Assembly: GCA_964016885.1 (NCBI GenBank)
Contig: OZ024742.1
Coordinates: 53,320,001 to 53,384,000 of the forward strand
Source of the DNA: Eledone cirrhosa
Lineage: Eukaryota
Length of the DNA stretch: 64,000 nucleotides
Reading direction: 5' to 3'
Shown here: positions 4,170 through 60,594 of the stretch, piece by piece
Position numbering within the stretch: the first letter of the stretch is position 1
Layout of the letters: every line of letters starts with the position of its first letter
Notes under the pieces: model-generated
Databases searched by the model: none
What the model was told of the DNA's origin: nothing
The model's input: only the letters and a program-made list of their open reading frames with translations
Made by a program: the position numbers and the translations under genes

Positions 4170-4395
4170 TATATTTGATATTGTAGTACTGGGACCGGGA
4201 ATACTACATATCAAAGAGGTACTCGATGTATAGTAAGATGCAGAGTGAGTATATTATTGAAAGTAGAGGATCTACCTTGACCTCAGTGGTTTCGGCCAGT
4301 TACCACTTTGAAGTGGTAACTGGCAGAAACCTCTTTGAAGAGGTTAATTAGCTGAAACAGCCGAGTTCATGGTAGATCCTCTACTTTCACAAATA
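4170..4395. mobile_element. Fold-back Penelope-type pLTR remnant in (TA)n with degenerate hammerhead cores
   Basis: Arms tgaaagtagaggatctacc (4258-4276) / ggtagatcctctactttca (4371-4389), inner hairpin 4288-4331, and TTGAAGA-ggttaattagct-GAAACAG motif. Confidence 0.55.
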
Positions 4396-5374
4396 TATAT
4401 ATATATGTAAATAAGACCATTGACTGCCCTAACTCATAAATAAAACACTCAGAAAATACCATTAAACCCATCACTGACCTGTACTCATGAGTCCCATTAA
4501 ACCAACCACAGACCCACATTCCTATATTCTGTAAACCAACCACAGACCTGCACTAGTCACCGGTATGGGAAAGACAGACTTTATCAATCTGCTGGTGTTG
4601 TATTACATATGAACATATGCATGGACATGTAACTCCCGATAGAGTTGTAGGGGTGCCATAGTGGCATACAATATGTCTTGGGCATTTTTAACTTGACAGA
4701 GCCCATCCCTCTCCTGATCTGAACACAGTAAATTTCTTCCAGAGTAGGAGAAAGATAGAGTTGAGAGGAAGTGAGAAAAAGATATAGACTATTAATTTTA
4801 CTTCAAAATAAAGCATATACATTTACTATTTCTAATACAATTCCAAAACTTATCACACATAAAATAAAAAATGAAATAAGCTTTTTTTTTTTCATCAAAT
4901 GGTTATGGGGATCCACCAAAACAAATTAAGAGTAAAAGTGGTCCATGGGTAAAACTGGGTTGAGAACCAATGATATAGAGGAAGTATTAATCCCAGTACT
5001 AGGCTGGTAATTTTTTAAATATTTTTATCAATCTTTAGAGGATGAAAGGCAAAGTTGACTTGAATGGGGTTTAAACTCAGAACGCAGAAAGTCGGTATGA
5101 ATACTGCAAAACATCCTATCAGACATTCTAATGACTCTGCCAATTCACGGTCTATAATTATTGATTAGAAACTGGTAAATCAAACGTGGCGATGAAACTG
5201 CAATGCCACTTAAATATCAACTAATCTTTGATAATAGTTGGCATTATATGTACTTAACACATCTTCACTTGACTCTTCAATATAGCTGTTGTTTTTGTTG
5301 AGCTATTAATTGTTAGTATTTCATTGGCTCTAATGTAAATGGAGTGTCTTGTTGTGATGAGGAAGCTAATTCTG

Positions 5375-5680
5375 GTGATAGTGTGGTGATGGTGGTGGTG
5401 GTGTAGTAGCGGTGGTATAATGGCAGTGTGGTAGTGGTGGTTTGATAGTGGCAGTAGTGGTAGTGTGATAATGGTTGTGTAGTAGTGGTGATGTTGGTGA
5501 TATAATAGCACTGTAGTAGTAGTAGTGTAGTAATGGTGGTGGTCATGATATGTGGTAGTGGTGGTGTAATGGTAGTGTAGTAGTGGTGATGGTGGAAGTG
5601 GTGATCTGATAACTGTGGTAGTGGCAATATAGTAGTTGTGGTAGTGGTAGCAATAGTTGTATGATAGCAATGTAATAGTG
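5375..5680. repeat. (GTG/GTA)n low-complexity trinucleotide tract
   Basis: Degenerate gtggtagtagtg repeats. Confidence 0.85.
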
Positions 5681-5781
5681 GTCTTGCTACAACATAGTCA
5701 GCTTAACCCTGTTCAGCCTCATTAATTTTGATGCTTTCATCCATCTTTCATAAAATACACGACCACCAACAATAATAATAA

Positions 5782-6910
5782 TGGTTTCTGATTTAGGCAC
5801 AAGGCGAACAATTAGGGGGTGGGGAAAGTCAATTAAATTGACCCCAGCACATTATTGGTATATTATTTTATCGACCCCATAAGGATGAAAGACAAAGTGA
5901 ACTCTGTTGGGATTTTAATACAGACTGTAAAGGGTCGTAACTTTATGCCACAAAGCATGTTGTCTGATGCTTTACTGATGCTGCCAATTTACTCAATAAT
6001 AATAATTGTTTCTACTTTTGGCACAAGGCCAGCAGTTACCCAGTGCATTACTGGTACTTTATTTTATCGACCCCGTAAGGATGAAAGACAAAGTGAACTC
6101 TGTTGGGATTTTAATACAGACTGTAAAGGGTCGTAACTTTATGCCACAAAGCATGTTGTCTGATGCTCTACTGATGCTGCCAATTTACTCAATAATAATA
6201 ATTGTTTCTACTTTTGGCACAAGGCCAGCAGTTACCCAGTGCATTACTGGTACTTTATTTTATCGACCCCGTAAGGATGAAAGGCAAAGTTAACCTCGGT
6301 GGGATTTGAACTCAGAATGGCAAGGGCAGTAACTCTAAGCTGCAAAGCATGGCGTCCAACCCTCTACCGATACTGCCAATCCACCGCCCTTACTCAATAT
6401 TAATAATGATTTCTGATTTAGGCACAAGGCCAGCAATTAAATCAACCACAGTATTTGACTGGTACTTTATTGTATCCACCTCAGAAGGGTGAAAGGTAAA
6501 GTTTACTTGGCGGGATCTGAACTCAGAATGGAGTAAGTCATAACTAAATATCACAAAGTGCTTTTTTCAATGTTTTACCAATACTGCTGAATAATAATGG
6601 TTTCTGATTTAGGCACAAGGCCAGCAATCAACCCCAGTGAAAGACTGGTACTTTATTGTATTGACCCCCGTAAGGATGAAAGGCAAAGCTGACCTCAGCA
6701 AGATTTGAACTCAGAACGTAAAGAGCCGTAACTCTATGCTGTGAACAAGTGTGCCCAACGCTCTACCGATACTGCCAAATAATGATAATAATAATAATAA
6801 TTGTTTCTACTTTTGGCACAAGGCCAGCAATTACCCAGTGTATTACTGGTACTTTATTTTATCGACCCCGTAAGGATGAAAGGCAAAGTTAACCTCGGCG
6901 GGATTTGATA
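5782..6910 (-). mobile_element. Head-to-tail cluster of ~6 tRNA-derived Nin/Deu-domain SINEs separated by (AAT)n
   Basis: Reverse strand shows B-box gagttcaaatcc followed by tttgcctttcatccttacggggtcgataaaataaagtaccag (Deu/Nin-like core). 196-bp periodicity at 5881/6077/6273. Confidence 0.8.
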
Positions 6911-7454
6911 ATAATAATAATAATAATAAAGTGTCTCATGAAGGAGAACTACTGTGACTTTATGTGTCTGTAGAAAATGTTAAATAATGTTCACCTTGGT
7001 TTTGGTGAGGCCTTCATCATTCAGTTGCAGTATGGTGATGTCATCTAGTAAGACATCCTGTAAGAGGGCATGTCTTCCAGGTCGATATCGGGCTGAAGTC
7101 ATTGAGGATACATTACAAGACTTATAAAAAATGCACAGATAAGAATACTGTTGATTTGCTGCTGCTGTTGACATTTGTCTGATCAGAGATCAGTCTTGGG
7201 CCCAGTTCAAATCCAACCAAGGTCGATAAAACAAAAATTACCAGCCTAGTACTGAGGTTGATACTTCCTTGATATCTCTATATCTTTCTCCTCATACTCT
7301 GAAAGAAATCTGCTGTCATCAGATATGGTGAGGAATAGTGCTTGGATCTCTGCCCACCTGAGAATGTGGACCTCATGCATCTTAATCCCATTACTGTCAG
7401 CTGGTTGCAGTGCCTGGGGGATGTCACATGATTACTGTCTCATACATAAGAAGA

Positions 7455-8495
7455 TGATCATGATAAGAAGAGGAAGAGGACTGAGAGGGTGTGAAGACGG
7501 CATTAGAACAGAAGAAAATAAATTGGTGTGGTACATAAAAAATTCTACAGAAGCACTGTTGGTGGAAGTAAGAAGGTCAGGGATGTGCAAAATAGAAGAT
7601 TGTAAAGAAAAAACACAGTACAAGCATTTGAAAAAGGATGAAACTGAAAGTAGACAGACAGAAAAAAAGTTTGTATGGACAATTCCATAGTGATGTTGAA
7701 GATTGGACAGACAGAGAAAAAAGATGGTTATTGATGGTTAAAAGTGATCTAAATCCGGAAACAGAAGCCTTAATCTGCGCTGCTCAAGTACAAGGACTAA
7801 GAACTAACTACATCAAGCATAGAGTAGACCACACAACAGAAAATGATAAGTGTAGAATTTGTGGCATGAATGGAGAAGCTGTATTATCAGCCAATGCACA
7901 CCTCTAGCTCAGAAAGAATATGAGACACCACAACAACATAGCAAGGATAGTCCATTGGGCACTTTGTGGCAAATATGCACTTGACAGAGCAGAAAAGTGG
8001 TATGAATATAACCCTAAGGGTGTTATAAAAAATGATGATGCAAATATCCCGTGGGAATTTGTGATACAGTGTGACCATGAGATTGAGCATAGGAGATCAG
8101 ATATGGTACTAATTGAGAAAGAAAACAAACTGTTGGATTATAGATATAGCCTGTCCAGCTGATAACAAGGTATGCAATAAAGAAGGAAAAAATGATAGAT
8201 GTGGCAGGTTAGTTTAGGAGATTAAGCAGTTATGGTCACTAAGAAAAGATGGTGGTAATATCAATAATAGTTGGAGTCTTGGGAACAGTGAGTAGAGATC
8301 TTGAGAAGTACATTAAATAAATATGGATTGCAATATGAATGGAACACTACAAAAATTAGCATTGCTTAGAACAGCTCAAATACTCTTGAGGGTACTTGGA
8401 AAATAAGGGGTGTTACCTCAGTTCACTGGTAGGGAACAGCTAATACTGTTATACATCTCAAGCATTAAAAGCTGAGCGAAGAAACAATAATAATA
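7455..8495 (+). mobile_element. 3' part of an R4/Dong-like RLE-type LINE, degenerate
   Basis: LYGQFH, LNPETEALICAAQVQGLRT, KCRICG, RHNNIARIVHWALC, EIEHRRSDMVLIEK, IDIACP (zinc knuckle + PD-D/ExK endonuclease). Ends in (AAT)n. Confidence 0.8.
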
Positions 8496-8509
8496 ATATA
8501 TGATAATAT

Positions 8510-8840
8510 ATCTACCAAGGAAATGGAGTAATTATCCAGATATAAAGATCTAGAGATAGAAATAACCTGAATGTTGATTATGAAAACACAAACAATATCT
8601 GTAATAATAAGTGCTCTGGGGATGATAAAAAACACACTGATAGATACACAACCAAAACCCTATATGTTCAAATATATTCAGCACACAAAAAATAGCACTG
8701 CTAGGCACTGCAGACATATTACAAAGAGTACTCTAAGTACAATAGAAACAACACCACAAAAAACCATACTGTACATTCCCAAGGTCCATAGAACTATGCT
8801 TGCTAATGCAGTGACAACACACAATAAAAATAAGACTACT
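8510..8840 (+). mobile_element. Second R4/Dong-like 3' fragment
   Basis: KEME.LSRYKDLEIEIT..MKTQTISVIISALGMIK..TALLGTA resembles the RLE C-terminus. Confidence 0.6.
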
Positions 8841-8844
8841 AATA

Positions 8845-9400
8845 ATGGTTTCTGATATAGGCACAAGGCCAAAGTGTTAGGGGACAGGAAAGTCAATTAA
8901 ATCAACCCCAGTGTGTTACTGGTACTTTATTTTATCGACCCTGTAAGGATAAAAGGCCAAGCTAATTTCAGCAAGATTTGATCTCAGAATGTAAAGAGAT
9001 GTAACTATATTCCACAAAGCATGTCGGATGCTCCACTGATACTGCCAATCCTCAGTCACTCTTTTCTTGTGTTTTTCTCTCCTCTCACTTTCTGTCCCCC
9101 TCTTTCTTTCTGCCTGTCTCTCATTTCTCTATCTCTTCCTTCTCTCTTCTTCCACCCTCTCATCATCTTTTCTCTCCCTCTCTCCACCCTAATAGTAATA
9201 ATAATATAATTGTTTCTACTTTTGCCACAAGGCCAGCAATTATCCCAGTGCATTACTGGTACTTTATTTTATTGACCCCGTAAGGATGAAAGGCAAAGTG
9301 AACCTCGGCGGGATTTGAACTCACACCATAAAGGGGCGTAACTCTATGCTGCAAATCATGGCGTCCGACGTTCTACTGATACTGCCAATCCCCCGCCCTT
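8845..9400 (-). mobile_element. Two Nin/Deu-type SINEs flanking a CT-rich tract (other copies ~4990-5150, 11415-11678, 26155-26316, 26836-26950, 41043-41262, 48480-48610, 51490-51670, 53840-53995)
   Basis: Same core as the 5782-6910 cluster. Confidence 0.75.
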
Positions 9401-17871: not shown

Positions 17872-18899
17872 CTATATATGTGTGTATATATATGTGTGTC
17901 TATATGTGTGTGTATATATATGTGTGTATATATATATATGTGTATATATATATGTGTGTGTGTGTGATTATATGTGTGTGTTTATATAAATATGTGTATA
18001 TGTGTGTATGTATGTATATATATATGTGTGAGTGTGTATGTATATATTTATATGTAGAAGACCTGACTTCCCACGGGCAGAAGCTGAAGCACCCCACCCC
18101 ACCTCTCTCACTCCCATACACCTTTCATGATGACAAGCTGAAGTATGCATCTAGTGAAGCCTCCAGCCCACACTGTAAAGTAGAAGACCCAACTTCTCAC
18201 AGGCACTGGCTAAAGCTGAAGCATATATATAATATGCACCACCTGACCCCTCCCACTTCTTTACATCTTCCATGTGGACAAACTGAAGTATACATCCAGT
18301 GAAGCCTTTAGCTCACACTGTAAAGTGGTCATGATGGCAACACAGCAAAAAAGCTTCCAGCCCACACTATAAAGTGGTTATGTAGGTGTCACTGCAAAAA
18401 GCACCCATCCCACACTGTAAAGTGGTCGTGTAGTTATCACTGCAAAAAGCACCCATCTCACGCTGTAAAGTGGTCATGTAGGTGTCACAACAAAAAGTAC
18501 ACAGTACTCACTATAAATGAGATTGCTGCTAGGAAGGGCATCCAGCTGTAGAAACCAAGCCAGAAATCGGTTCTATATGAGCAAAACATGGTCACCTGAC
18601 CTGGCATTTCTCACAATAAGATAACTCGTCTAACCCATGCTAGCGTGGAAATGGGTGTTAAATGGGGATGATATATATATATGTATATATATGTGTGTGT
18701 ATATATATATATCATTGTAGTTAATATGAAGTATTGTGAGGTATGTAGTAAAAGGCTGATAGTTTTTTTTTAAAGCTTTTACAATGCAGTAGAAAATATG
18801 AAAGGTAAATGATAACAAATAAAAAACAAAAAAACAAAGTTACATTTTACCTAATGTATATTTCAGGGCTATTAACCTATTAACAGATGCAAAACTGAA

Positions 18900-19100
18900 A
18901 CAGTTCCAAACAAAACAAAATGAGCTACACATACGGATCAAGGATCATGTCACAATGAGAGACCTATCCGTTAAAAACATCTTGACAGATGCCGTAGTCA
19001 AGACATTGAGGAATATAGGCAATTTACGGATTAAAGAGGCCATTTTCATCAGCCGAATAAAACCAAGGATAAATAATAGGTCAGAAATGCACGAGACAGA
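18900..19100 (+). mobile_element. C-terminal GIY-YIG fragment of a Penelope-like element
   Basis: ELHIRIKDHV...NLRIKEAIFISRIKPRINNRSE matches the L..R..EH / L.I.EA..I...P.IN pattern. Confidence 0.55.
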
Positions 19101-19204
19101 ATGGTTTTTGTATCAACCTCACACATGCGTTTTGCAGATACATAGACCAGTTAGGGAAGAATACTTTGATCACTTGTTTTGTTATGTTTTGGACGGTTTC
19201 AGCT

Positions 19205-19960
19205 TCACATAACATTCCACATGATTATGGAATCGAAGCCATCAAATACTGGCTGGACTAATTCCCTTATGAACTACCAGACTGCTTCAATAAGAATTTC
19301 ATTGAAGATGGACTTAAATTCATTTAAAAAACAATTATTTCATATTTGATGAAATAGCCTATTGACAGAAACCAGAAATAGCCATGGGGACAAAAGTTGC
19401 ACCAATATATGCTTACCTACTCATGAGATACCAGGAATTACAAATTTACAAAAAAAAAAAAAAATCAGAACAAATTAATGGGAATAATTTTCGGCATCTA
19501 CATAAAGAAAAATGGAAGAGGTACTTGGACGACTGCTTCATATTGTGGAGGGAGAATTTGACCAACTAAAGGAATTTCAAACCCTCATCAATGATAAAAG
19601 CCAGAATACCCAATTCACTATGGATTTTAGCAATATAAATCTTCCATTTTTAGATATCCTCAATGACTTCTTGTGCAACTCGGAGAATCTAATATACATT
19701 ATGACACGTAAAGGCTGCCACGAACATTATATTGGACAAAGTGGTACTTCACTCCAAAGATGAATGACAGTTCACTGTCAACAAATCAGGGACCCACACA
19801 CCAGAAAGATCCCGCTAAGCCAACATATAAAGGAATGTGGAGGACGAATTCTGCCAAATTTTAATTTCTTTCCGTTCTACAAGTGTAGCAAAAGTTTTCC
19901 CACAGGAAAAACCTATTTATAAGGAAAGATCTTCATAAGTAGATTCAAGTCAAAACTCGT
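19205..19960 (+). mobile_element. Degenerate Penelope-like element: RT + GIY-YIG endonuclease (Neptune-type Cys motif), internally deleted
   Basis: NIPHDYGIEAIKYWLD, NNYFIFD, AMGTKVAPIYA, WKRYLDDCFILW, LPFLDI, then CNSENLIYIMT.KGCHEHYIGQSG..L..RMTVH. Multiple stops. Confidence 0.85.
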
Positions 19961-22300: not shown

Positions 22301-22457
22301 GTTGTGGTTGTGTTTTCTTCTCAGATATTCTATCTACTATGTTCTGAAATTGAAGGTTGATTGGTTAGAAAATGAATATTCTGTGATACAAAACATGTGC
22401 AGTGCCAATGTTTTTTTTTAGTAATTCTGTATATGTGTGCATATATATATATATATA

Positions 22458-22670
22458 TATATTAGTAAAAAGGAAAAGAAAATGCTGACAAATTTTTCCC
22501 AGTGAAAAATAGTTTAATTAGGAATAAGTATAAATTAGTAATAAGTATTAGTTTACTAATTTATACTTATTCCTAATTAAACTATTTTTCACTGGGAAAA
22601 ATTTGTCAGCATTTTCTTTTTCTCTTTTTACTAATATATTACAACTCGTGTGTCACACCTCTATTTCTTT
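22458..22670. mobile_element. Fold-back element (~82-bp arms, ~11-bp spacer, short tail) next to (TA)n
   Basis: 22461-22541 is the near-perfect reverse complement of 22553-22636. Confidence 0.75.
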
Positions 22671-24123
22671 TAAGCAGGGAAAAGTGGACGTAAAATGAAA
22701 TGATGATGATAATGATGATATATATATATATATATTATTAGTAGAGCTTAAAAGTTTAAAACTTTTAATTTGTACTAATAATAAATATTTGCTCTATGGG
22801 TTTATCCAACCCTCCATTTTTTATTGTGGCACCAAAACGACCATCTAACAGAGTGGACTGGATGCTTATTCATCGTGTCACCAGCATGATCACCTTACAA
22901 GGTGGACTGGGTGCTTTTGCATGTCACCAACACAACTTACAGGTATGATGGATTCGGTGCTTTTGTTGTTATAGTACCAGCTCACCATACTGAGGTGAAC
23001 TTTGTTATTTGTTGGCATAGTGTGGCAGGAGAGATGTATGAGAGGCAAGGAATGAACATGCGGGGATGGAGAAAGGAGGAGAATAAGTTCTCAGGTTTGA
23101 CATGGGTGAGCTGTAAGGGTTATTTAGCTGGTGAGGAGTGGATGGGAGGTATTAAGATTGGGGAGGGCTAAAGAGCAGAAGATTGGTACAGATTAGTGCC
23201 CTCTGCATATTTGTTTCATCCTGTGCACATGGGAGGGTGGGTCTCCTTCAGTACCGCACAATGCCAGTGATCTCAATCCTGTGTCATCTCCTTTGTGAGA
23301 TTTAATTAAGCCAGGTCAGTTTTAATCCCTTCATCTCAAACTTTACTAGGTTTTCCTCTTCCATAGTTTCCGTCGACTTTATGTGCTTTGTATCTTTTGG
23401 TAATTATTTTGGTCTTAATTTATGTTGCCATAGCAGTTTATTGATATTGTTGCTTTTATTTTGTTTTTTTTTGTTGTATTGCTTACATATGTTTTAATTA
23501 TTTTATTTTATTTTATTTATTTATTTTTTCCTCTATTTATTTATTCATTTACTTTTGTTCTTTTTATTTAGTTTTAATTTATTTAATTTTTTTTTGTTTT
23601 GCTTTTTTTAATTTATTTTTTTGGCAACAGAAATTTGGAAGAGTTTATAACAGAAAGCTTTTGATAAGCAGCCACTGTCAATGGCATGCATGTAAGTGAT
23701 CATTAGATGCAGGAACTGTTATTTTGGTAAGCAGTTTTTTTTTTTGTTTTTCTGTTTATTATATTTTTATTTCTATCTGGAAAATAAACCAAACTTATTT
23801 TAAAAAAAGGTTCTTTTTAAAATTCTTGTCTATGCAATCATTATAAAGGTGAGGTCTTTTATTCAACAGTTTCTATGGTTGAATGGGAATCTTTCCGAAT
23901 GATTATCTATACATGTCTTGAATAAAACAACAACATTGATGAAGAGGAATTAAATAGCTGTTAAATCTAGTTAGATCTCAAGCAGCTGTTTTACTTCTAG
24001 TGATATGTGTGTGTGTGTGTGTGTGTATAAGTATGTATATATTATACAGGACTAGAAGTGTTTCATTCTTATGAAATCATCAGGATTTCATATATTTATA
24101 TATTTTCATTGGGAATCCACCCA

Positions 24124-24165
<42 letters not shown>

Positions 24166-24380
24166 TATGTATGTATGTATACGTACATACATATATGTAT
24201 ACAGACGTACAGTAGTATGTATATATATACATACATGCACACATATATATATGCACGTATTGGTTTACCGAACATTTATTATAATGCTCGGTTTGTTTGT
24301 AAACAAACAAACAGCCCGAATTGCGCGGTACAGTGTTTAGGCAGCCACGTCACCTTTTTGTTCAACACTGACACTGGAAC

Positions 24381-24419
24381 GATGTACTAGTTTCAAGCTT
24401 ATTAGCTATCGTCAGCATC
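24381..24419 (-). ncRNA. Minimal type I hammerhead ribozyme (inverted copy, CUGACGA core)
   Basis: Reverse complement gatg-CTGACGA-tagctaataagctt-GAAACTAGTA-catc. Confidence 0.8.
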
Positions 24420-24639
24420 GTATTCCTTCCTGCCAGATGGTTGAACGTCTGAAAGTATATACTTTCCTTATGCATATTAACGGCTGAGCAGCCTAATTTG
24501 TCATTCTATTCCATTTATCGTTTTCGGTGTGCCCGGCCGACTGAACTCACTCGATATGCAAATTAGGCCGCTCAGCCGTTAATATGCATAAGGAAAGTAT
24601 ATACTTTCAGACGTTCAACCATCTGGCAGGAAGGTATAC

Positions 24640-24678
24640 GATGCTGATGATAGCTAATAAGCTTGAAACTAGTACATC
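24640..24678 (+). ncRNA. Minimal type I hammerhead ribozyme
   Basis: gatg-CTGATGA-t agct aata agct t-GAA-ACTAGT-A-catc: stem I gatg/catc, palindromic stem III, GUA cleavage triplet. Confidence 0.8.
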
Positions 24679-24952
24679 TTCCTGTGTCAGTGTTGAACAA
24701 AAAGGTGACGTGTTGCCTAAACACTGTACCGCGCAATTCGGGCTGTTTGTTTGTTTACAAACAAACAAACCGAGCATTATAATAAATGTTCTGTAAACCG
24801 ATACGTGCATATATATATGTGTGCATGTATGTATATATATACATACTACTGTACGTCTGTATACATATATGTATGTACGTATACATACATACTTACATTT
24901 AAGTAAGTGCCGTACTAAGAGTGAGAAATGAAATTTAGTTTCATTCTATTCC

Positions 24953-24955
<3 letters not shown>

Positions 24956-25360: not shown

Positions 25361-27082
25361 TATATATATATATAATTTATACAATGTACATGACAATCAA
25401 AGAGTGTGTAGCAAGCAATAGTGCTACTTTATTACGTCGGGGTCACCACTTTTGTAATAAGTACTTTTGTTCTAATGGTAGCAGAAAGGTGTTCAAGAGA
25501 GATTTACAATGGTACAATTAATAAAGGTAGCAATTCGATGTTGGACTGATATGTTAGTAGTGATTACTACTTCAGGAAAATGGAGATGTCTTGCAAGCAG
25601 GGAAAAGCGGACGTAAAATGATGATGATGATATTCCATAGTAACGGAAAAGAACAGAAGGCATATTTCAAATCATAATAAAGATTTATTTTCTTCTTCAT
25701 ATTAATACAAGTACAAGGCAAGTGAAGAGCTGCAAACATATTGTATAATCAAATTGAACGATAAATGTAATTCTCCGCAGAGTCATATATCAAGATTACC
25801 CTCGGCTTTAGAGGGCAAGATCGAGAAAATCAGGCAGCGAGTTACACGGTACTGCTCAGTAGAAGATCTCGAACGTAACTGCGGGATGCGCACTTCAGCC
25901 CAGCCTTCGTGCATGAGACACATGGCTTACATCTATCACTCTCATCTACCCTCCCCCACTTCTTTGCCTTGAAAGAACAAAGGTCCAGCTTTCACACATG
26001 CGCTCTTCGATCCAGCCTTTGCGCAAGCACACTTAGAAACAATTAATTACTTACATCTATCTAAACTATAAAAAAGTAAGAGGTGCGGGGCTGCGTACGG
26101 TTTATTTCTTTTAATAGAGTTAGTAAAATAAGTTGGATTACTTTGAATAAATAATTGTTTCTACTTTAGGCACAAGGCCAGCAATTACCCAATGCATTAC
26201 TGGTACTTTATTTTATCGACCCCGTAAGGATGAAAGGCAAAGTTAACCTTGGCGGGATTTGTACTCAGAATGGCAAGGGCTGTAACTCTATATGTCAAAG
26301 CATGGCGTCCGACCCTAATGAATGAATATTACATAATTTATGTACTAAATTGAATTTAATATAAATATTAATATAAATAATTTTATTGCTAATTCAAAAT
26401 TGACTTCTTTTCAAAGTTTCAAATTTCTACACTTCCAGTATATCGCTACCACCACCACCACCTTCAACTACCATATATATAAAAAGAGAGAGTGTGTTAT
26501 GAGAGAGATACAGATAGCATGATTATGATTTTCTACACGTTTTCTACACGTATCTATGTGTATGTGCACATACATACATCTGTATGTATGAGTATATAAC
26601 TATTATGAGTATATAACTATAATCGCGCAAACACAAACTTATAAAAATACATGCTCATGGACATTCACACAAATACGCATACTTTCACACATATACTTTC
26701 ACACAAACGCATTCATCCATCCACACATATACATTTACACAGACACACACATACAGTCAAGATAGCAGTGTTTGGTGAATTGGAAATTGGAGGGTAAAAC
26801 AAGTATAACGTTTTATTATTTATTAACTTCATGATCTAAGTTCAAATCCTGCCAAAGTTAACTTTGCCTTTCATCCTTACGGGGTCCATAAAATAAAGTA
26901 CCAGTAATGTACTGGTTAATTCCTGGCCTTGTGCCAAAAGTAGAAACAATTATTTATTAACTCTTTTTTTTAAAAACTCATTTAATATAATGGTTACAGA
27001 ACGAAAACACTAACAAATATAATATATACAAAGGAAAGAGAAAAAATACACAAGCATGTAATACACACATCTAAGACCACAT

Positions 27083-34336: not shown

Positions 34337-34550
34337 TGCGTCCGACTGCTTAACACCGGGAGCTGCCCAAAACGCGTCCTCACCGTATGCTGGTCACCAC
34401 TAGAGAGAGGCCCTCTCCTGGCCCTTCCGGTCGAGCATCCTTCCGGTCAAAGACCCCTTCCGGTCGAGCACTCAAAAACCCCTTCCGGTCGAGCACTACC
34501 CCCCCCCCCCCCCCCCTCCCCCGGCCACCGCACGCCACATCATACCCACA
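34337..34550 (-). repeat. 5' LTR
   Basis: TGTGGGTATG...GGACGCA on the - strand, followed by TGG-starting putative PBS. Confidence 0.95.
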
Positions 34551-34894: not shown

Positions 34895-35612
34895 AATCGG
34901 TCCAGCCCTCACCATTGGCACTTTGGTCCAGCCCTCACCCATTGGCACTTTGGTCCAGCCCTCACCCATTGGCACTTTGGTCCAGCCTCCGTCCATGCGT
35001 GAATCGGTCCAGCCCTCACCCATGCGCACTTTGGTCTAGCCTCCGTGCATGCGCACTTTGTTCCTTCGTCGTGCATGCGCACTTCAGTTCATCCCTTGTA
35101 CGTGCACACTTTGGTCGTGCCTCCACGCATGCGCACTTTGGTCCAGCTTTCGCGCATGCGCACTTCGGTTCTCCCTTCGCGCATGCGCACTTCGGTTCTC
35201 CCTTCGCGCATGCGCACTTCGGTTCTCCCTTCGCGCATGCGCAGTTTGGTCCAGCCCTGCGCATGCGCACTTCAGTCTTGCCTCCACGCATGCGTACTTT
35301 GGTCCTCCCTTCGCCCATTTCGGTCCACCTCGCACATGTGCACTCCATCCTCCCTTCACGCATGCGCACTTCGGTCCAGCCTTGTGCATGCACACTTCGG
35401 TCCAGCCTTGCGCATGCGCACTTAAGTCCATTCCTTGCGCATGCGCACTCCGGTCCAGCCTCCATGCATGCGCACTTCGGTCCTCCCTCCGCGCATGCAC
35501 ACTTCGGTCCGCCCTTCATGCATGTGCACTTCAGTCCAGCCGCTGCGCATGCGCACTTAGGTCCTCCCTTCGCGCATGCACACTTTGGTGCTTCCTTTGC
35601 ACATGCACACTC
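34895..35612. repeat. GC-rich ~22-23-bp minisatellite (gcgcatgcgcacttcggtccagccct-like), ~30 units
   Basis: Direct reading. Short degenerate version at ~25885-25912 and ~25981-26035. Confidence 0.9.
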
Positions 35613-36253: not shown

Positions 36254-37132
36254 CAGGGTGAGGACGATATTTGTTCGCAATTTTCAATTGCTAATTTTAT
36301 GCAAATTTTTTTTACTTCCATTGTCACTCTTGTCTTCATAAAAACAGTGACTATATTTTCAGAATAATTGATTATGAATAATTTTGAACCTCCAAATTTG
36401 TGGAAGAGTCATGGAGTTCTTCTTGGAATCCGCGCCGGGAGGACAAATAAGGAAATTTCAGACTTTCTCAGCGTCAGCAGGAGAATGGTGTCTCATCCAA
36501 AGACGTGCCCAGAGTCATGCAGACAAAGTTTCCAGTGACAACATTGGTCTTAGGTGTCATCAGCAGTCAAGGTGACGTCATGCCACCTCACTTCTTCCCT
36601 GAGTGCCTCAAGCTGAACACCGATGGCTACATCCGCATTCTGAGTGAGGTAGTAAAGCCCTGGATCGACCAGATTGCTGCAGGTAGGCCGTACGTGTGGC
36701 AGCAAGGCTCAACGCCCTGTCATACCAGCCGAAAGACCCAAGCCTGGCTGTCAGAGAACTTCGTCAACCACACTTTATCTGACATCTGGCCTCCCGGCTC
36801 GCCTGACTGCAACCCCCTCGACTTCTTTGTGTGGGGCGCAGTGAAACGAGACACCAACAGATCTAGCTGCAATACGAAAGACGATCTGAAGGCCAAGATC
36901 ACAAGTGCCTTTAGGGGCCTAAGTCGGGGGACAGTGACGAAGGCCTGTAGCCGGTTCCGAGGCCGCCTTGAGGCCGTCATCAAAGCCAATGGTGGGTTTA
37001 TCGAGTGAGATCGAAAGAAAAAGTCATGGAGACAAACCGACCCAAGTTTGATAAATATATCTTAAAAAATAAAACTACTGTGTTATTTTTTCCTAGACAG
37101 TAATCTTGCGAACAAATATCGCCCGCACCCTG
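36254..37132 (+). mobile_element. Internally deleted DD37D (maT) transposon
   Basis: TA|cagggtgaggacgatatttgttcgcaa...ttgcgaacaaatatcgcccgcaccctg|TA. Lacks ~415 bp relative to the 38030 copy. Confidence 0.9.
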
Positions 37133-37140: not shown

Positions 37141-37623
37141 TAGTGAAAGAGTGAAGAATAACTTGGCCGGTTGTACAAAAAGGGTTTTATTTACAGTATT
37201 AACAATTGTTTCATTGATCAGGTGAGTCTAAAGGTCGATAATCACTCAAAGCTGCGTTTCTCGACCTTAAATACAGTGTGTGTCTCTGATCAAATCATCA
37301 TGAGTATTCCGATGATTTGATCTGAGACACACATTGTATTTAAGGTTGAGTGATGCAATTTTGAGTGATCAGTAGCCTTTAGACTCACCTGATCAATGAA
37401 ACAATTGTTAATACTGTAAATAAAACCCTTTTTGTACAGCCCACCATGTTATTCTTCCCTCTTTCACTACTATTACTCCAAGAATAACCTGCATGAGAAT
37501 TCTTGCAAACTTGTTACCTAACTATGGAAACCTTGTTGAGTCAAACAACGCCGTACGTTAAAACTATCCATAGTACAGAGTACTCACAACCTCTAACTGG
37601 ATTACCTAAAACGATAACTTGTT
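37141..37623 (+). mobile_element. Fold-back hammerhead element (159-bp arms + 154-bp tail) in (TA)n
   Basis: 37141-37299 inverted versus 37311-37469. Hammerhead-like 37303-37415, with AATAAA at ~37419. Confidence 0.75.
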
Positions 37624-37974
37624 ATATATATATATTTGTATATATATATACACACACATACAAACACACAGTTCTTGTAGGTGTCACAACAAAAAAAGAC
37701 CCAGTCCACACTGTAAAGTGGTCGTGTAGAGGACATGGTAAAACGCTCCCAGTCCACACTGTAAATGTGGTTGGTGTTAAGAAGTGCATCCAACTGTAGA
37801 AAACCTTCCAGATACAGTACTATGTGAGTGAGACACGGTCACCCAATCAATCTTGCCTCAAGTGGGACAATTCCCGTCTAACCCATGCTAGCATGGAAGA
37901 TAGACGTGAAACGATGTTGATGATGATGATATATTTATATACATACATATATGTATATACATATATTTATAAAC

Positions 37975-38032: not shown

Positions 38033-39336
38033 GGTGTGGACGATATTTGTTCGCAATTTTCAACTGCTAATTTTATGCAAATTTTTTTTACTTCTGTTGT
38101 CACTCTTGTCTTCCTAAAAACAGTGACTATATTTCCATTATTTATTTTCAGAATAATTGATTATGAATAATTTTGAACCTTCAAATTTGTGGAAGAGACA
38201 CAGAGTTCTTCTTGGAATCCACACCGGGAGGACAAATAAGGAAATTTCAGACTTTCTCAGCGTCAGCAGGAGAATGGTGGAAAAGGTCAGAAAGGAATTG
38301 GAAGATTCAGGATTCGACTACGAAGCAACATCAGAGAGGAAAACACATGATCGACGATCTGACGCCTTCAGAATGCCCGAGTTCGTCGCTGAAGTTCAGG
38401 ATATCATCAACAATGAACCTAGCAAGTCGATGCGTGCCATTGCAAGGGAGAAAGGTGTGGATGAAAAGCTCATTAGGCTGGTGGTACATGAAGACATTCG
38501 CTACGTTTCATACAAGATGAGGAAAGGACAATTTCTGTCAAAGGCGATGCAAGAAAAGCGACTGAAGCACGCAAAGAAGCTGATCAACAAGTTGAAACAC
38601 CCACTGGAGCCAGACATGCTGTGGATTTTCTCCGATGAGAAAACCTTCTGCCAAGACCAGAAGATCAACTCCCACAACAACAGGTGGCTCACTGTCTCAT
38701 CCAAAGTCGCGCCCAGAGTCATGCAGACAAAGTTTCCAGTGACAACATTGGTCTTAGGTGTTGTCAGCAGTCAAGGTGACGTCATGCCACCTCACTTTTT
38801 CCCTGAGGGCCTCAAGCTGAACACCGAATGCTATATCCGCATTCTGAGCGAGGTAGTAAAGCCCTGGATCGACCAGGTAGCTGCAGGTAGGCCGTACGTG
38901 TGGCAGCAAGACTCAGCGCCCTACCATACCAGCTGAAAGACCCAAGCCTGGCTGTCAGAGAACTTTGTCGACCACACTTCACCTGACATCTGGCCTCCCA
39001 GCTCGCCTGACTGCAACCCCCTCGACTTCTTTGTGTGGAGTGCAGTTGAACGTGACACCAACAGATCTAGCTGCAATACGAAAGACGATCTGAAGGCCAG
39101 GATCACAAATGACTTCAGGGGCCTAAGTCAGGGGACAGTGACGAAGGCCTGTAGCCAGTTCTGAGGCCGCCTTGAGGCCGTCATCAAAGCCAATGGCGGG
39201 TTTATCGAGTGAGATCGAAAGAACAAGTCATGAAGACAAACTGACCCAAGTTTGATAAATATATCTTAAAAAATAAAACTACTGTGTTACTTTTTCCTAG
39301 ACAGTAATCTTGCGAACAAATATCATCCGCACCCTG
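38030..39336 (+). mobile_element. Full-length Tc1/mariner DD37D (maT) transposon
   Basis: ~27-bp TIRs, TA flanks, 1307 bp. WIFSDEK, VWQQDSAP, SPDCNPLD with 37 aa between the second and third Asp. Confidence 0.92.
38163..39212 (+). pseudogene. DD37D transposase with two premature TGA stops
   Basis: Stops at 38934-38936 and 39162-39164, both CGA in the 36254 copy. Confidence 0.88.
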
Positions 39337-39498: not shown

Positions 39499-40567
39499 TA
39501 AATTATTGACACATCGTTTATTTAGTATTCATTTATAATCCAGATAAGAATCTATATTTATATTGATTTTTATTCTATGAATATTCTTAATTGGCTTACT
39601 GTCTGTTCTTACCTATCATTCTTGGTATTTATTCAATTCCGCAAACTGTAGATGTTCGCTTACCTTCTTCTGGAAATTTCCACACATGAGCATTTGGTCG
39701 ATACTGGGATTATTGCTAATATAAACTTAAGATACTTCTTATTTAATCATATATTTAGAAGCATTTGGAATTTTCTAACAACACATACCTACACACACAT
39801 ATATGTATCATCATAATTTAATGTCCATTTTCTCTACTAGCAAGGGTTGGATGTATCTTCACAGACTGCCAGCCTCTGAACTGCTGTGGGGAGTGGGTAG
39901 CGACAGACGATTGACATATTTTTTCATGCTTTACTACTGCATTTTATTGTGGCACCAGCACAACTGATGAGTCCTTCTAGGGCTGGATGCTCTTCCTATC
40001 ACAAACTACTTTATAGAGTATATGCTATGTGTTTATCATATAGATCATATATATATATATATGCTCAGTTGTTAGAGTGTTTGGCTCATGAACATAATTG
40101 TTTCTAGTTTAGGCACAAGGCTAGCAATTTCCCAGTGCATTACTGGTACTTTATTTTATCGACCCCGTAAGGATGAAAGGCAAAGTCAACCTCGGCAGGA
40201 TTTGAACATAATGATGTCAAGAATTTGATTCCATGACTGGGAAGCACATTGTATCTTTGAGCAAGATATTTTATCTTATTTTGCTCCATTCTCTCTCTCA
40301 CATACATATGAGACTCTTAGTTGACAGTTACCACTCACACATACCATCACCCATATCTGCAGATGTCAATCATTCATATCAATATGCAATACATTCTATT
40401 GCTATCCATCATTCTCTCTTCACCATGAGACACATGGCTGACATCTATCACTCTCATTTACCCTACCCCACTTTCTCTCTTCTACCATATAACATTTCTA
40501 TTGCTATCCTATCACTTTACTCAAGTTGTTTTCTATTCAACATCCTACCCATTACCAACAACCATTA
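39496..40567. repeat. Near-identical copy of 29372-30449
   Basis: Direct comparison. This copy continues past catta into tgctgctact with no LTR element. Confidence 0.9.
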
Positions 40568-41914: not shown

Positions 41915-42708
41915 ACCAATACTTCAATGTTTTCCTAATTTGGACATTGTAGAGGATTAACCACTGACCAAAGTCAATATGTTTTTACATCTTAAAGTTT
42001 CCTTTGGGATGTTGTATTGGTAATGTGATATATATATATATATATATACAAATGAATATATGATAGGGATAAACACTGATACAAGTATACATGTGTTCGC
42101 ATTGCAAATGACCAAGTTAGCTAGATTGAAAAATACTAATTAAAATAATACGGTTTGCCTGTCTCGATTTAAAATAATAAATCAATAAAAACAAACCTAT
42201 ATTGGCTGCTATTTTTAGTGGCACAAGTATGGGACGTGCTAGACACTGTGACACATGTGCTTTCAAAACATTTCTCTCAATCTTCTTAAGTATTTTGAAG
42301 TGAAACTTACCAATACTTCAATGTTTTCCTAATTTGGACATTGTAGAGGATTAACCACTGACCAAAGTCAATATGTTTTTACATCTTAAAGTTTCCTTTG
42401 GGATGTTGTATTGGTAATGTGATATATATATATATATATATACAAATGAATATATGATAGGGATAAACACTGATACAAGTATACATGTGTTCGCATTGCA
42501 AATGACCAAGTTAGCTAGATTGAAAAATACTAATTAAAATAATACGGTTTGCCTGTCTCGATTTAAAATAATAAATCAATAAAAACAAACCTATATTGGC
42601 TGCTATTTTTAGTGGCACAAGTATGGGACGTGCTAGACACTGTGACACATGTGCTTTCAAAACATTTCTCTCAATTTTCTTAAGTATTTTGAAGTGAAAC
42701 TTACCAAT
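41915..42708. repeat. 394-bp tandem duplication
   Basis: 41915-42308 = 42309-42702, with accaat microhomology at the junctions. Confidence 0.9.
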
Positions 42709-43023
42709 TTCTGGATACCTGCAGAAGAGCACAGGAATAGGAAATTTCACTTAATTGTTGCAAAACAAATTTAAAATTTGTCCAGGTATCACGGCTATTG
42801 CCAATATAGTTTTTATTGATTTATTATTTTAAATCGAGACAGGCAAACCGTATTATTTTAATTAGTATTTTTCAACCTAGCTAACTTGGTCATTTGCAAT
42901 GCGAACACATGTATACTTATATCAGTGTTTATCCCTATCATATATTCATTTGTATTACACGGCTCAGAAATATTCCTTTCTTTGAGCTATTTAATTGTAA
43001 AAGACTATTTGAGTTTATAACTC

Positions 43024-43753: not shown

Positions 43754-44067
43754 ATGAAAATGCAAGATCTCCACGTGGTAGGACGCAACTCTGATATTCC
43801 AACCCATCACCATCAGTACCGCAACCGAGAACTCCTGGAAGCCGTTCTGCAGAAGAAGGACGGGGAACCAAACAAAAGTGAGACAGGTTCACGTATCTCA
43901 GCTCTCATCAGCCGCCAAAATGGCAACTTAAGCCGTCCGTCAAGCTTCTCTCGTCGAAGCATCAACCTGTCCCGCCAAAGTCTTACGGAAACACAGTCAC
44001 ATGACTCGGAGAGTGACCTGTTCAATGAAGAACGATGTTATTCTGGGACCGAAAAAAGCATATTCAG
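43754..44067 (+). CDS. Probable first coding exon of an unidentified host gene (Ser/Arg-rich N-terminus)
   Basis: Acceptor ttttattcatcag|43717, gccATGa start, GC-richer open frame MKMQDLHVV...SGTEKSIF, donor cag|gtaaat at 44067/44068. Confidence 0.65.
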
Positions 44068-45099
44068 GTAAATCCAAGATTTGATTTTATAATTTATGTT
44101 GTCAAATTTGGGTGGGAAGAAATTCTTTATCAATTTTGAAAATATTAAAAAAAAAAATCTGAAATTGAATTCTTACTAAGGCACAAGGCTACAAATTTAA
44201 AGTGGTGATGGGAATGGGTTGTGTGATACGCATACCTTTCTGAAGTTGTATAAATCGCTTCAACCTAAAACCAAAGCAGCTAGCAGACTTGGTGTTCCAA
44301 ATACTTTTTTTTTCTCTCCAAAGAAATCCCAAATTTATTTTTGTTAAATATATTTTTTCATCAATACAATACATACAATTTAATATCCTTATCTTAATTT
44401 TTTGTGCAAGAGTATTTTAGCTACTGTATTCTCCCTCTGATTAAGCCTCTTTCTTAAGTAGTTATCAATAGTAAGAGTATATTGCTATAAAAATAATTTG
44501 TTCCTCCAGTGCAAATATACAAATTTACACAAACCATCCCAACCATGATAACATGGAAAAGAGAACGCCAGAAAAAAATAAATAAAAAATTAAAGAATAA
44601 TAATGATATACCCATCATATTCTGGGTGCCATATGTATCAGAATTCCCAAATCTCAAATTCTAGGGCAATGATTCGTGTTTCCAGAATAATCATAATTGA
44701 ATGAAACCTGGGCACTTATCCAGAGTTATAGACTTCCTGTCCACTGTGTTGAGAAGGGAGGTGGGATGGAGCATAAGGCCAGTAACCCTACTTCCATTAA
44801 TCATAATTGCTATAGAAATGAACAGATACCTAGCCTAGAAGCAGGCCTGTAACAAGTCTTGTAACTGTATGGAATGGAGATCTCCATAGAGAGCAAAAGG
44901 AACTAAAGATCTTATTAAAAAAGACAAATCCTTGTGTGTGATTGTTTTTCTTCTTCTTTCTTATTCTGTTTGACACACTCCAGTGTTTTTCTAGAAGGGT
45001 TGTCAATAATATTCATTTCATAACAATACCAGAACAGAATGTATGCAAGAGAGAGTAGGAATACTAGAATTCATATCATTGAGTTTAAAGTCAATCTCT

Positions 45100-48861: not shown

Positions 48862-49804
48862 TTAAGTATATAGTACTAAGTTGAATATTGGTCTTACTTG
48901 TATTAAATAGTAACAGATTCTCCATATGTATTAAGCAGTGGTATTGATAAATATTGGTTGCCAGATGGATTTGTTCATTTGTGGTAGAAGTGATGAAGTG
49001 TGAAGATGATAAGTGAGTAACTTGTTGGTCGAATATTGGCAAGTGAATAAGTGAAGTATGTTTTAGTGAGTTAAGAGGAATTTTGCCTTGTTTGAGGAAA
49101 CAAGTAGTTGTACTCAATTGTGGTGTTAAGTGATATTACCATGGGGAAGATGATTTTCCTGAATCACATGGATAAGAATTTACAAATAAACAAGACATTG
49201 CTAATTTAAATGTCTTTATGTATAATATGATTTACTTTGAAATTATGTGCAGCAAGAACAAGAGAAATAATAGATGCAGTATGTTATGTGTGCACATATA
49301 GAAAACCATTGGTAATATTTACTAACCTGTGTTGATAGTAATCTCAGCCAGTGTAGATCCAAGCAGGGCTGGCTAGCAAGTACGTCTGTGTGTGGCTACA
49401 TTGCTAGGCTGACTAAATAAACTATCTGATGTAAAGTCAGGAAGCAGACTGTATTTTGCAGAGTAAAAAATCAGATTATCGTTGGGGTTCAAAGTCTCTT
49501 GTATATATAATATTTAGGTTGCGCAGAAACATTAAACAGATGGCCATTTCAACTGTCCTCGTTTTGGTTCCTCTGGCACTGAAAGACCCCTTCAAGTCAA
49601 TATTATCTAGGATTTGGGCTCTGAGGTCATAGGTTAGTCTTTTGGTGGTCGTGTGTGGCAGACTAAGAAAACCATTGTAGGGAAAAACATGTTGAGGTTT
49701 CACTACACACACACACATATATAAATGAACACATATATAAATGAACACAAGTAGAAATACTACTACTACACACTGGAGTAGCTTATATATAAATATATAT
49801 ATCA

Positions 49805-50435
49805 AAAGTATATATTGAGTTAGAAACTCAGAATAGTCTTTTACAATTAAAATAGCTCAAGGAAAAAATTATCCGAGCCGTATAATATAATTAAATATAA
49901 TAAAGAGAGATAAACACAGATATATTTGTTCAAATCATAAGGGACCAAAGTCGCTAGGGTGAATAGGGCGACTTTGATTCCTGAAGGTAACAGTACGCAT
50001 CCTTGACAGAGTCCAACTCCCACATTGAACAGTTTAAATTTAGCACCATTTATCTGAACTCAAATACTCGGGCATTCATATAGAGACATCAGGGCAGCAA
50101 GAAGCTCACCATCGATCCCAATATTTGGTTGGCTGTGCTACATCCGGGGCGAAAACTACTAAGTCTGTCTGTGCGTGGTTCTGATGAATGCCAACCAGCG
50201 TGAAACAGGCTGTCAACCTCTCTCTCTCTTTTGCCAAAAATAAGTAAGTGACATAATCACTACTTTAAAACTGATAGCGTATGGTCTTATAAATGTTTTC
50301 AATAAAAAATATGGTATATTGCCAAATATACTAAACATACATTCATGTATACATCGCTATTTCAGAGCACCAATCCTAATTCCACATATATGTATATATC
50401 TGTGCTTATCTCTCTTTATTATATTAAATTATATA
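49805..50435. mobile_element. Fold-back hammerhead element (short ~41-bp arms, tail shared with the 42441 element)
   Basis: 49885-49925 inverted versus ~50395-50434. Tail 49812-49885 is the reverse complement of ~42954-43028. Confidence 0.7.
50177..50218 (+). ncRNA. Minimal type I hammerhead ribozyme
   Basis: ggtt-CTGATGA-atgc caacca gcgt-GAA-ACAG G CTGT-C-aacc, with GUC cleavage triplet. Confidence 0.82.
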
Positions 50436-50459
50436 TATATATATATATATGGCTTAGCA

Positions 50460-59199: not shown

Positions 59200-59345
59200 A
59201 AAAGAGTGTCTCAGTTGGTGAATGAAAACGCCATTTAAAAGTGCACCAAAACAGCACTGTATTTCTTACCATGGGAGGCCCCCATCGTTGCAACGTTTGT
59301 GCAAGAGTGTGCAAGTCCCTAACAGATCTAAAAAGCCAAGTCCAT
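59200..59345 (+). mobile_element. LINE C-terminal C2H2-like fragment
   Basis: PHRCNVCARVCKSLTDLKS resembles the terminal zinc finger of RTE-like ORF2. Confidence 0.4.
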
Positions 59346-59617
59346 GTTACTCATGTTTAAGTATCAAGCAATAGCATTATTCAAAATCGATTTACAGCCA
59401 TTATGTATGTATGTGTGTGTGTGTAGGTATGTATGTGTGTGTATGTGAATGTACGTATGGATGTGTGTGTATGCATGTATGTGTGTGTATGTTAGTATGT
59501 GTATGTGTGTGTATGTTGGTATGTGTATGTGTGTGTATATATATAAATATAATTATTATTTTTATATATAATGCCACAAGGTAGCACTGGAATGAGTCTT
59601 AATAGATTACTAAGCCA

Positions 59618-59672
59618 GCATACTAACGTTTCAACCAGTTGCAGAGCTCTACAACTAGTTAACAGAACACGC
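59618..59672 (-). ncRNA. Degenerate hammerhead motif
   Basis: gcgtgtt-CTGTTAA-ctagttgtag agct ctgcaactgg tt-GAA-ACGT-T-agtatgc, with two core mismatches. Confidence 0.45.
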
Positions 59673-60177
59673 CTGCATACCAACGACTAGTAAAACCCCA
59701 TATTATATAAAGGAATAAAAACTGCATAATATAATGTAAATCAGCCTGTAAGGCAGTTCATCAAACTAGAGAAATCTCTTATCATGCAACTTAAGAAATA
59801 ATATAGATGAGAAAGAAATATCTCTTTGTAGAATAAAAATAATGAAAAGGAGCTTTAGAAAAAATATATGTCCTAATCATTCTTTCAAGAAAAGAAGAAA
59901 AGAATAGCTCCAAGGTATTGTCTTACCTGATCAAATCTTGTTTGCTTTCAATTTTAGTCTTCCTCTACATTCTTCTTTCTTTTGATGCAAGTTGCAATAG
60001 GATTAGCAGTCATATTGAAATTGTGTGTGTGTGTGTGTATATATGTGTATGTATGCATGTCTGTATGTCTGTATATTATGTGTGTATATATATATACACA
60101 CACACACACACATATATACATACATAAACCTGTATAAATACATAGTATCATCATTTACCATGTTTCTCGATATATAT

Positions 60178-60594
60178 AAGGTGGAACACTGGAAGGTAAT
60201 ATCCGTAGTGGTAGAGCACTCAGTCCATGGGACGAGTTAGATAGAAGTGGTTACACAACAGTTAGTTCACCATACCGCGAACAATTGTTTCACCTTCGCG
60301 GATCTTCAGCTCGGGATGTATATGGTTATAGGAACAGGAAGGACAACCGTACGAACGCGCATGCACAGAAACTCGGTCACTTCACACAGGCAATAGTAGA
60401 CTGCGTGCAGTTATCTTCCTTACACCCCCAGCATGCAGTCTACTATTGCCTGTGTGAAGTGACCGAGTTTCTGCGCATGCGCGTTTGTACGGTTGTCCTT
60501 CCTGTTCCTGTAACCATATACATCCCAAGCTGAAGATCCGCGAAGGTGAAACAATTGTTCTTGGTATGGTGAACTAACTGTTGTGTAACCACTT
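60178..60594 (-). mobile_element. Fold-back hammerhead element (164-bp arms + ~67-bp tail) in (TA)n
   Basis: 60245-60408 inverted versus 60431-60594, hammerhead in each arm. Confidence 0.8.
60525..60564 (+). ncRNA. Minimal type I hammerhead ribozyme
   Basis: ccaag-CTGAAGA-t cc gcgaa gg t-GAA-ACAATTGT-T-cttgg. Confidence 0.75.

Follow-up and report, generated by a model that had tools for sequence, protein, structure and literature searches.

Inverted insertions, probably of Penelope-like elements and hammerhead repeats, at (TA)n tracts of the Eledone cirrhosa genome

Eight elements in the window

We analysed a 64,000-nucleotide (nt) stretch of the Eledone cirrhosa genome (contig OZ024742.1, positions 53,320,001 to 53,384,000; this whole stretch is "the window" below) in which eight short elements lie at or near (TA)n tracts. 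An earlier note on this DNA had described all eight as mostly fold-back elements, in which two inverted arms and a spacer are followed by a tail beyond one arm, and had attributed them to a diversified, (TA)n-targeting system of Penelope-like elements and hammerhead-bearing retrozymes. The elements are labelled E1 to E8 in window order, and fold-backs were checked by self-BLAST and with a repeat finder run on the window. In the list that follows, an arm is called long-ended or short-ended according to which of two fixed family ends (below) it possesses.

E1, 4175..4397, minus strand: old fold-back with arms at about 4250-4320 and 4335-4397, a tail at 4175-4249 and half a hammerhead
E2, 22457..22673, plus strand: short-ended arm 22457-22553 (-), long-ended arm 22553-22673 (+), tail of about 35 nt
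E3, 24165..24955, plus strand: member of a retrozyme-type family with tandem units of 446 nt; short-ended arm 24165-24500 (-), long-ended arm 24501-24955 (+), tail at about 24897-24955
E4, 37141..37625, plus strand: short-ended arm 37141-37299 (-), long-ended arm 37305-37625 (+), 161-nt tail
E5, 42440..43023, plus strand: member of a tandem family with a unit of about 490 nt; short-ended arm 42440-42600 (-), long-ended arm 42598-43023 (+), 67-nt tail
E6, 49803..50439, no single strand: three-part composite
E6 outer arms and tail, 49803 to about 49965 and 50394-50439: from an E5-like sister family
E6 inner fragment, about 49985-50120: reverse transcriptase (RT) fragment like that of a long interspersed nuclear element (LINE)
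E6 hammerhead element, 50170-50391, plus strand: separate and 5'-truncated, with an intact GUC ribozyme at 50181
E7, 59570..59705, minus strand: solitary remnant; the hammerhead-like motif at 59665 is decayed
E8, 60180..60597, no single strand: assigned to a Hydra-clade Penelope-like element, of which it is the 3' end; long-ended arm 60180-60408 (-), short-ended arm 60407-60597 (+), 63-nt tail at 60180-60240; the short-ended arm goes 24 nt further 5'

Self-BLAST delineated fold-backs at 4250-4397 (E1, arms 77% alike), 22457-22639 (E2, 93%), 24165-24896 (E3, 91%), 37141-37469 (E4, 87%), 42440-42955 (E5, 96%) and 60238-60601 (E8, 90%). Six of the eight elements are thus true arm-spacer-arm-tail fold-backs, as had been claimed, and 59570-59705 is, as that note had it, a remnant that does not fold back; E6 departs from the description. 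Its arms are just 46 nt long (49881-49925 and 50394-50439) and belong to a sister family of E5, the element at 42.4-43.0 kb, not to the hammerhead unit, and the LINE-like RT fragment lies between these outer arms and the hammerhead element. The claim that all eight sit at (TA)n holds on both flanks for six of them, but about 45 nt of another repeat intervenes before the TA at the right end of E2, and the TA flanks of E7 are short and imperfect. Beside E5 there is a 394-bp tandem duplication (41915-42702, 1 mismatch) that takes in the flank, the TA tract, E5's left arm and some of the spacer; it could be a very recent duplication or an assembly error.

Families, coding parent and ribozymes

Searches of the element's own genome gave 237-8025 first-look candidates for seven elements, with 39-40 scored for each, and each of these seven has family copies elsewhere in the 3.0-Gb genome; the same search with E7 found only E7 itself. 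Alignments of 15-26 loci per family have a sharp (TA)n end on one side and fade toward the other, which points to retroposition with 5' truncation, and the alignment majorities end in (TA)n in all seven families. Most copies are monomers, and the gradient of 5' truncation leads into an RT gene.

This gene is seen in the E8 family, whose shared sequence enters a 462-residue open frame (the open C-terminal part, in loci L023 and L152) that ends about 300 nt before the E8 3' end. The longest copy, L153, spans 2493 nt and is frameshifted, and on its 5' side its own 3' end recurs as an inverted copy of 1059 bp; a second locus, L154, has an inverted copy of 583 bp. The parent has a single frame in which RT is followed by a C-terminal GIY-YIG endonuclease, in an element of less than 3 kb. 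A Pfam search with the parent protein returned no family, and the domains were read from their motifs: RWR (in place of RWK), DKT, FDIVDFYP and YRDD, a CxCx5C linker (CSCRKPEAC), and a GIY-YIG domain (VIYEA...YVGM) that has no internal CxxC and in which CGLC and RCPH (CxxC and CxH) surround the catalytic E and N. Within the C-terminal EN+ Penelope-like elements, the Hydra clade has been defined as short elements with RWK and DKT, a CxCx5C linker, an endonuclease that lacks CCHH and has CxxC and CxH about E and N, a hammerhead and (TA)n (PMC8557442; here and below, published work is cited for the sections consulted). Since these motifs match that definition point by point, we regard 60178-60594 (E8), on sequence grounds, as the 3'-terminal part of a Hydra-clade Penelope-like element 2.5 kb in length. 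The E8 family and the clade share the size below 3 kb, the single RT plus GIY-YIG frame and the listed motifs, as well as a type I hammerhead close to the 3' terminus, insertion in (TA)n, an inverted 5'-truncated copy and a one-sided tail (PMC8557442). The supplement to that paper lists Hydra-1_Obim of Octopus bimaculoides, 2507 bp long with (TA)n and a hammerhead, and by eye, from the printed rows, the E8 parent is like it. Locus L154 (G000:C6:29,552,500-29,560,500) is in addition a nest of at least two Hydra-like families, with about 48% identical endonuclease and several inverted blocks.

The E3, E5 and E6 families are of another kind. E3 units lie 442-446 nt apart, the E5 tandem unit is about 490 nt and E6 forms a partial tandem of about 345 nt, each unit with one hammerhead, and no open reading frame (ORF) was seen in these family repeats. 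Metazoan non-LTR retrozymes are short tandem repeats without coding capacity, each unit being 150-450 bp long and having a single type I hammerhead, for which mobilisation by Penelope-like elements has been proposed and which reach up to 120,000 copies in axolotl (PMC7229834; bioRxiv 10.64898/2026.07.22.740005). Judged by their repeats, the E3, E5 and E6 families are retrozyme-type non-coding repeats, although the E5 units of about 490 nt exceed the published 150-450 bp; they have two fixed ends, TA targeting and inverted copies, as Penelope-like insertions do, and non-coding hammerhead repeats likely use the same enzymes as Penelope-like elements. Partial tandems, an inverted 5'-truncated copy and a one-sided tail recur in the E2, E3, E4, E5, E6 and E8 families; the inverted-copy architecture of E1 is based on 3 pairs. 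The tails measure 35-161 nt here as against 30-40 bp given for Penelope-like elements in PMC8557442. The proposal of a diversified (TA)n-targeting system was borne out, in that a coding element was linked to it and TA ends are enriched (below).

Hammerheads were sought with our own type I descriptors in strict, relaxed and 2-mismatch versions. The type I descriptor is matched in full in E3 at 24415(-) and 24644(+), in E6 at 50181(+), in E4 at 37309(+), where a CCGAUGA core carries a stem II of about 80 nt, and in E8 at 60530(+), whose counterpart at 60309(-) has a broken stem I; the strict version gave 3 window matches versus 1 in 10 shuffles. The E5 family hammerhead (CAGAAGA core) lies at about 42714-42790, and in the window copy GAAA has become AAAA. 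E1 keeps only the GAAA/stem III half of its family's hammerhead; its longer relatives have the CUGANGA half (5 pattern matches versus 0 for a reversed control), with core and stem II present and a stem I that is not clear. The motif of E7 at 59665(-) fits the 2-mismatch descriptor, which was written after the motif had been seen and which gave 1 match in the window and 1 match in 20 shuffles. The earlier count of seven elements with an intact or degenerate core therefore resolves into four intact hammerheads, one point-mutated, one half and one decayed, and what had been taken for a degenerate core in E1 is really the family stem II loop plus GAAA, not CUGANGA.

At the family level type I hammerheads are present in E3, E4, E5, E6 and E8, with paired changes in stem I in E5 and E6. 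All family loci together (1.13 Mb) contain 177 hammerhead motifs in 31 clusters, five of which were deliberately sought. Penelope-like minimal hammerheads have been described with a small palindromic helix III and a stem II that has an extra base at its 5' end, as many unrelated families per genome, mostly as single motifs in truncated copies, and as opposite-strand pairs 100-700 bp apart (PMC4209133), and the elements here share all of these features. Unlike those of that account, the hammerheads here have core position 4 fixed as A or C in three families, and positions 10.1-11.1 are often U-U. The three families with a fixed position 4 are E4, E5 and a 12-copy cluster in loci L160, L182, L193, L200 and L215.

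We estimated densities from a systematic sample of 60 evenly spaced 10-kb stretches (600 kb). The relaxed descriptor found 23 hammerheads in it, or one per 26 kb, versus none in any of 5 shuffles; were the sample representative, the genome would have an estimated 73,000-172,000 motifs, as compared with the 2,000-9,000 per genome of PMC4209133, which were counted with different descriptors. There are 57 local fold-backs in the sample, and a TA end is found in 31 of them, compared with 7.3 under random placement (maximum 14 in 200) and with 11 of 63 distant inverted pairs (p 2e-5); TA flanks are thus enriched among local inverted repeats. TA stands at exactly one arm end in 27 fold-backs, and in 17 of these a tail reaches TA within 140 nt. 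TA-anchored fold-backs occur once per 19 kb, so the one element per 8 kb of the earlier note was an overcount, and their arms make up about 1.3% of sampled DNA. Enrichment of hammerheads among the inverted repeats is weak only: an intact one is present at 5 of 57 fold-backs (random mean 1.5, maximum 6, in 200 placements) and in 3 of the 31 TA-anchored ones, and 16 of the 23 hammerheads lie away from any fold-back. Pieces of Hydra-like ORFs occur in 7 of the 60 stretches. That integration routinely yields hairpins was overstated, since 32 of 122 family loci are direct fold-backs (junction gap of at most 25 nt and arms of at least 40 nt, after three duplicate loci were dropped): 6/26 for E8, 10/21 for E3, 1/23 for E4, 3/15 for E5, 8/23 for E6 and 4/14 for E2.

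Fixed ends, their pairing and the origin of the fold-backs

Within a family the TA-terminated ends fall at fixed points, measured in nt inside the long end: 0 and 63 in E8, 0 and 161 in E4, 0, 67 and 129 in E5, and 0 and 37 in E6 and E2. In run X1, loose ends in TA occur at each of the two E8 points, in 21 and 42 short-read contigs. We examined 51 head-to-head junctions from six families, and 35 of them join a long-ended to a short-ended arm, whereas none joins two short-ended arms. Four are long with long, each with one end that is not in TA and runs into a tandem, and 12 fall outside the two bins, eight of which are explained by the blurred short end of E3 or the second short end of E5. In the 35 mixed pairs the short-ended arm reaches further 5' in 16 (by up to 630 nt; E2 and E8 of the window are among them), the long-ended arm does so in 15, and the two are level in 4. 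Since in those 16 each arm holds sequence that the other lacks, tail on one side and spacer on the other, neither arm was copied from the other. Two E3-family insertions, L160:2467-2792 and L178:4128-4779, have a long short-ended copy on one side and little beyond the inverted tail on the other, and are thus extreme examples of arms of unequal extent.

In 12 of the 27 one-sided fold-backs the arm end is followed by a motif of the form RCTC...GAGY, which among other fold-backs follows 3 of 50 ends and is present at 2.7% of random places; it folds as a hairpin in E1, E5 and E8. The same hairpin beyond both ends was considered as a general rule and rejected, being true of E5 alone.

A Penelope-like protein, that of Anolis Poseidon, has been found in vitro to nick AT-rich DNA, to extend both strands and to start at two internal RNA sites that bound the tail, with no need for hammerhead cleavage (PMC11167929). 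AT-rich cleavage, extension of both strands, two RT starts bounding the tail and a dispensable hammerhead are points in common with what we propose below for the elements described here; Poseidon belongs to a different clade, and the consulted sections of that paper do not treat inverted genomic copies or (TA)n microsatellites.

We think it probable that the elements are 5'-truncated 3' ends of Penelope-like elements together with non-coding hammerhead repeats, inserted in (TA)n, and that a fold-back results when both target strands prime RT. The element protein would nick both strands of a TA tract; one 3'-OH would start copying the RNA at the long site, its counterpart would start at the short site, and the two complementary DNAs (cDNAs) would stop at variable 5' points and then be joined head to head. 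The tail would correspond to the interval that separates the two start sites, and the spacer to whatever one cDNA had copied beyond the other, and a monomer would be left when one side aborts early or is lost. The hammerhead would process a multimeric precursor RNA and play no part in hairpin formation, and it would therefore be present in an insert only if copying had reached it. We infer two-strand priming and head-to-head joining from the pairing of ends and from the in vitro parallel; snap-back followed by later deletion is another possible route.

In such a snap-back, one cDNA would fold and copy itself, and an endonuclease or repair would trim the second arm at a fixed site to leave the one-sided tail. 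The long-ended arm should then be the one that goes further 5', as it is in 15 of the 35 pairs, with 4 level, and Craig et al. (PMC8557442) attribute the tail to endonuclease-mediated resolution of an intermediate. Each of the 16 pairs with the opposite excess, however, requires an extra deletion; in L060, L082, L160 and L178 the excess is 130-630 nt and the long-ended arm amounts to barely more than the tail, and the tail bounds coincide with two RT start sites in vitro (PMC11167929). We consider snap-back unlikely.

Two independent insertions of opposite orientation into one TA tract might also mimic a fold-back. Different families do stack at the same TA tracts, as in the E6 composite and the nests in L154, and copy numbers are high; but the two arms meet at their 5' ends, where the gap is -25 to +25 nt and no TA intervenes, they belong to a single family out of at least 31 hammerhead clusters, and their divergent orientation goes with the long and short pairing. 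This reading is already largely refuted by the junctions, and we regard it as very improbable.

Least credible of all, and in our estimate close to negligible, is that the fold-backs are assembly artefacts or palindromic DNA transposons resembling miniature inverted-repeat transposable elements. Among the short-read contigs listed none spans the junction of the window's own E8 copy, and the 394-bp duplication beside E5 may itself be misassembled. On the other hand, arms differ by 4-23%, each with its own differences from the family majority (3 and 8 for the two arms of E8, 9 and 13 for those of E4), and because the two arms differ separately from that majority they are not assembly echoes, as the earlier note had allowed they might be. 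Fold-back points moreover vary between loci while the outer ends are fixed, and the preponderance of monomers and the truncation gradient into an RT gene fit neither an artefact nor such a transposon.

Several observations weigh against the two-strand priming of Penelope-like ends and hammerhead repeats as we have set it out. The link to an ORF was achieved for E8 only; in the E1, E2 and E4 families shared sequence was traced 300-700 nt from the 3' end and no ORF was reached, and since no coding parent was reached for them and E2 shows no hammerhead, their assignment is by end structure alone. The 300-420 nt that could be followed in the E2 family contain no hammerhead, in agreement with the earlier remark that 22458-22670 is without one, and the family may have a hammerhead-less parent or a motif further 5'. 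An Rfam scan of the window included no hammerhead family among 107 matches at E<=10, these being microRNA-like hairpin noise below gathering scores. The hairpin motif stands beyond both ends in E5 only; in E2, E3 and E6, and past the long end of E8, it is absent or different. Family loci were the best matches to queries that contained tails, which biases them toward long ends. Finally, a later asymmetric deletion at the palindrome centre could mimic a short-ended arm that reaches further 5'.

The architecture itself is already published for the class, as regards the inverted copy and tail (PMC8557442) and the opposite-strand hammerheads (PMC4209133), and by these accounts the elements are ordinary members of it. 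How Penelope-like elements make tandem and inverted copies, and why microsatellites are favoured, is posed as an open question in PMC8557442, and the rule that long pairs with short, like the family and copy numbers found here, is not given in the consulted sections of that paper. In the literature consulted, which covered few subscription papers, we found no statement of twin priming for Penelope-like fold-backs, of the pairing rule or of their density. The long and short pairing, together with the sequence that each arm lacks, makes a specific test of the inverted structure available: two start sites and two target strands in one insertion. The value added here is that the rule makes an unexplained structure testable, and also the sheer density of the elements.

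In twin priming of L1, a single RNA is copied into two cDNAs, both primed at the target; they cover different parts of the RNA, and the 5' part of the insert comes to be inverted. In the fold-backs here the two cDNAs would overlap almost fully, with a hairpin as the result.

RNA duplexes, the host gene and other features

RNA transcribed across any one of the six fold-backs should, by prediction, pair into a long duplex. TA-anchored fold-backs account for 18 of the 24 local inverted repeats in the 600-kb sample that have arms of at least 50 nt and at least 90% identity, and for 2895 of the 5011 arm bases of those tight repeats. Octopus has been reported to have unusually many long, near-perfect double-stranded RNA (dsRNA) loci and hyper-editing, with the repeat not named in the sections consulted, and heavy editing of Penelope repeats has been reported from a lizard (PMC5625713). 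The earlier note had suggested that the hairpins could be ADAR substrates.

Three A>G places were found on E8 in contigs of the large runs X1 and X2 and of run X4, none of which is recorded as RNA; they are present in all three runs and are family variants. Contigs of four runs on E8 gave no editing signal, although contigs cannot show expression. An A>G or T>C skew was seen in 0 of 326 genomic alignments, and the arm-versus-arm mismatches of the six window fold-backs have no A-to-G skew (smallest p 0.15). Two of the 17 sampled fold-backs with enough mismatches gave p under 0.05, in opposite directions, which we take as chance or mis-alignment. The idea of ADAR substrates is reasonable but unsupported by these data. 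It is conceivable, though we consider it doubtful, that two-strand priming at two hairpin-marked starts, with some 100,000-220,000 tight hairpins, supplies the main dsRNA source of octopod adenosine-to-inosine (A-to-I) hyper-editing; the literature consulted, with its few subscription papers, does not name Penelope-like fold-backs as a source of octopus dsRNA. The scale is of interest for cephalopod RNA biology: if the window is typical, many TA-anchored fold-backs and hammerheads lie in introns.

The first coding exon of a Jiraiya-family host gene lies at 43754-44068 (+) and is 93% identical to P0001 over 104 residues. The next exon is about 41 kb downstream (exons at G000:C3:53,405,128, 53,407,923 and 53,421,994), so E6, E7 and E8 lie in the first coding intron of this gene. 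The intact GUC hammerhead element of E6 (50170-50391, +) is in the sense direction of the intron and has no antisense arm over it. It could cut the Jiraiya pre-mRNA if it is active as a monomer, which is doubtful given its short stem III. In fold-back RNA the ribozyme would presumably be buried by the antisense arm.

Other features of the window are as follows.

474-1280, minus strand: 268-residue frame that matches no Pfam family; it has cysteine/histidine-rich motifs and, after these, 17-residue repeats
5843-6908, 8869-9400, 26150, 29975, 34614, 40093 and 46288: abundant repeat like a short interspersed nuclear element, in a 196-bp tandem at 5.8-6.9 kb; its inverted pairs (26146-26958) are a second local class of hairpin
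18823-19212, plus strand: frame whose end resembles, by eye, the GIY-YIG endonuclease C-terminus of another Penelope-like clade; no Pfam support
29912-34850, minus strand: retroelement of the long terminal repeat (LTR) type between 300-nt direct repeats, with a third repeat copy at 40030-40329; its 869-residue frame has protease, RNase H and integrase-like Pfam matches
36451-37008 and 38157-38936: Tc1/mariner-like transposase pieces; E4 lies in a TA tract at the end of the first
34897-35611: GC-rich minisatellite with 27 copies of a 27-bp unit

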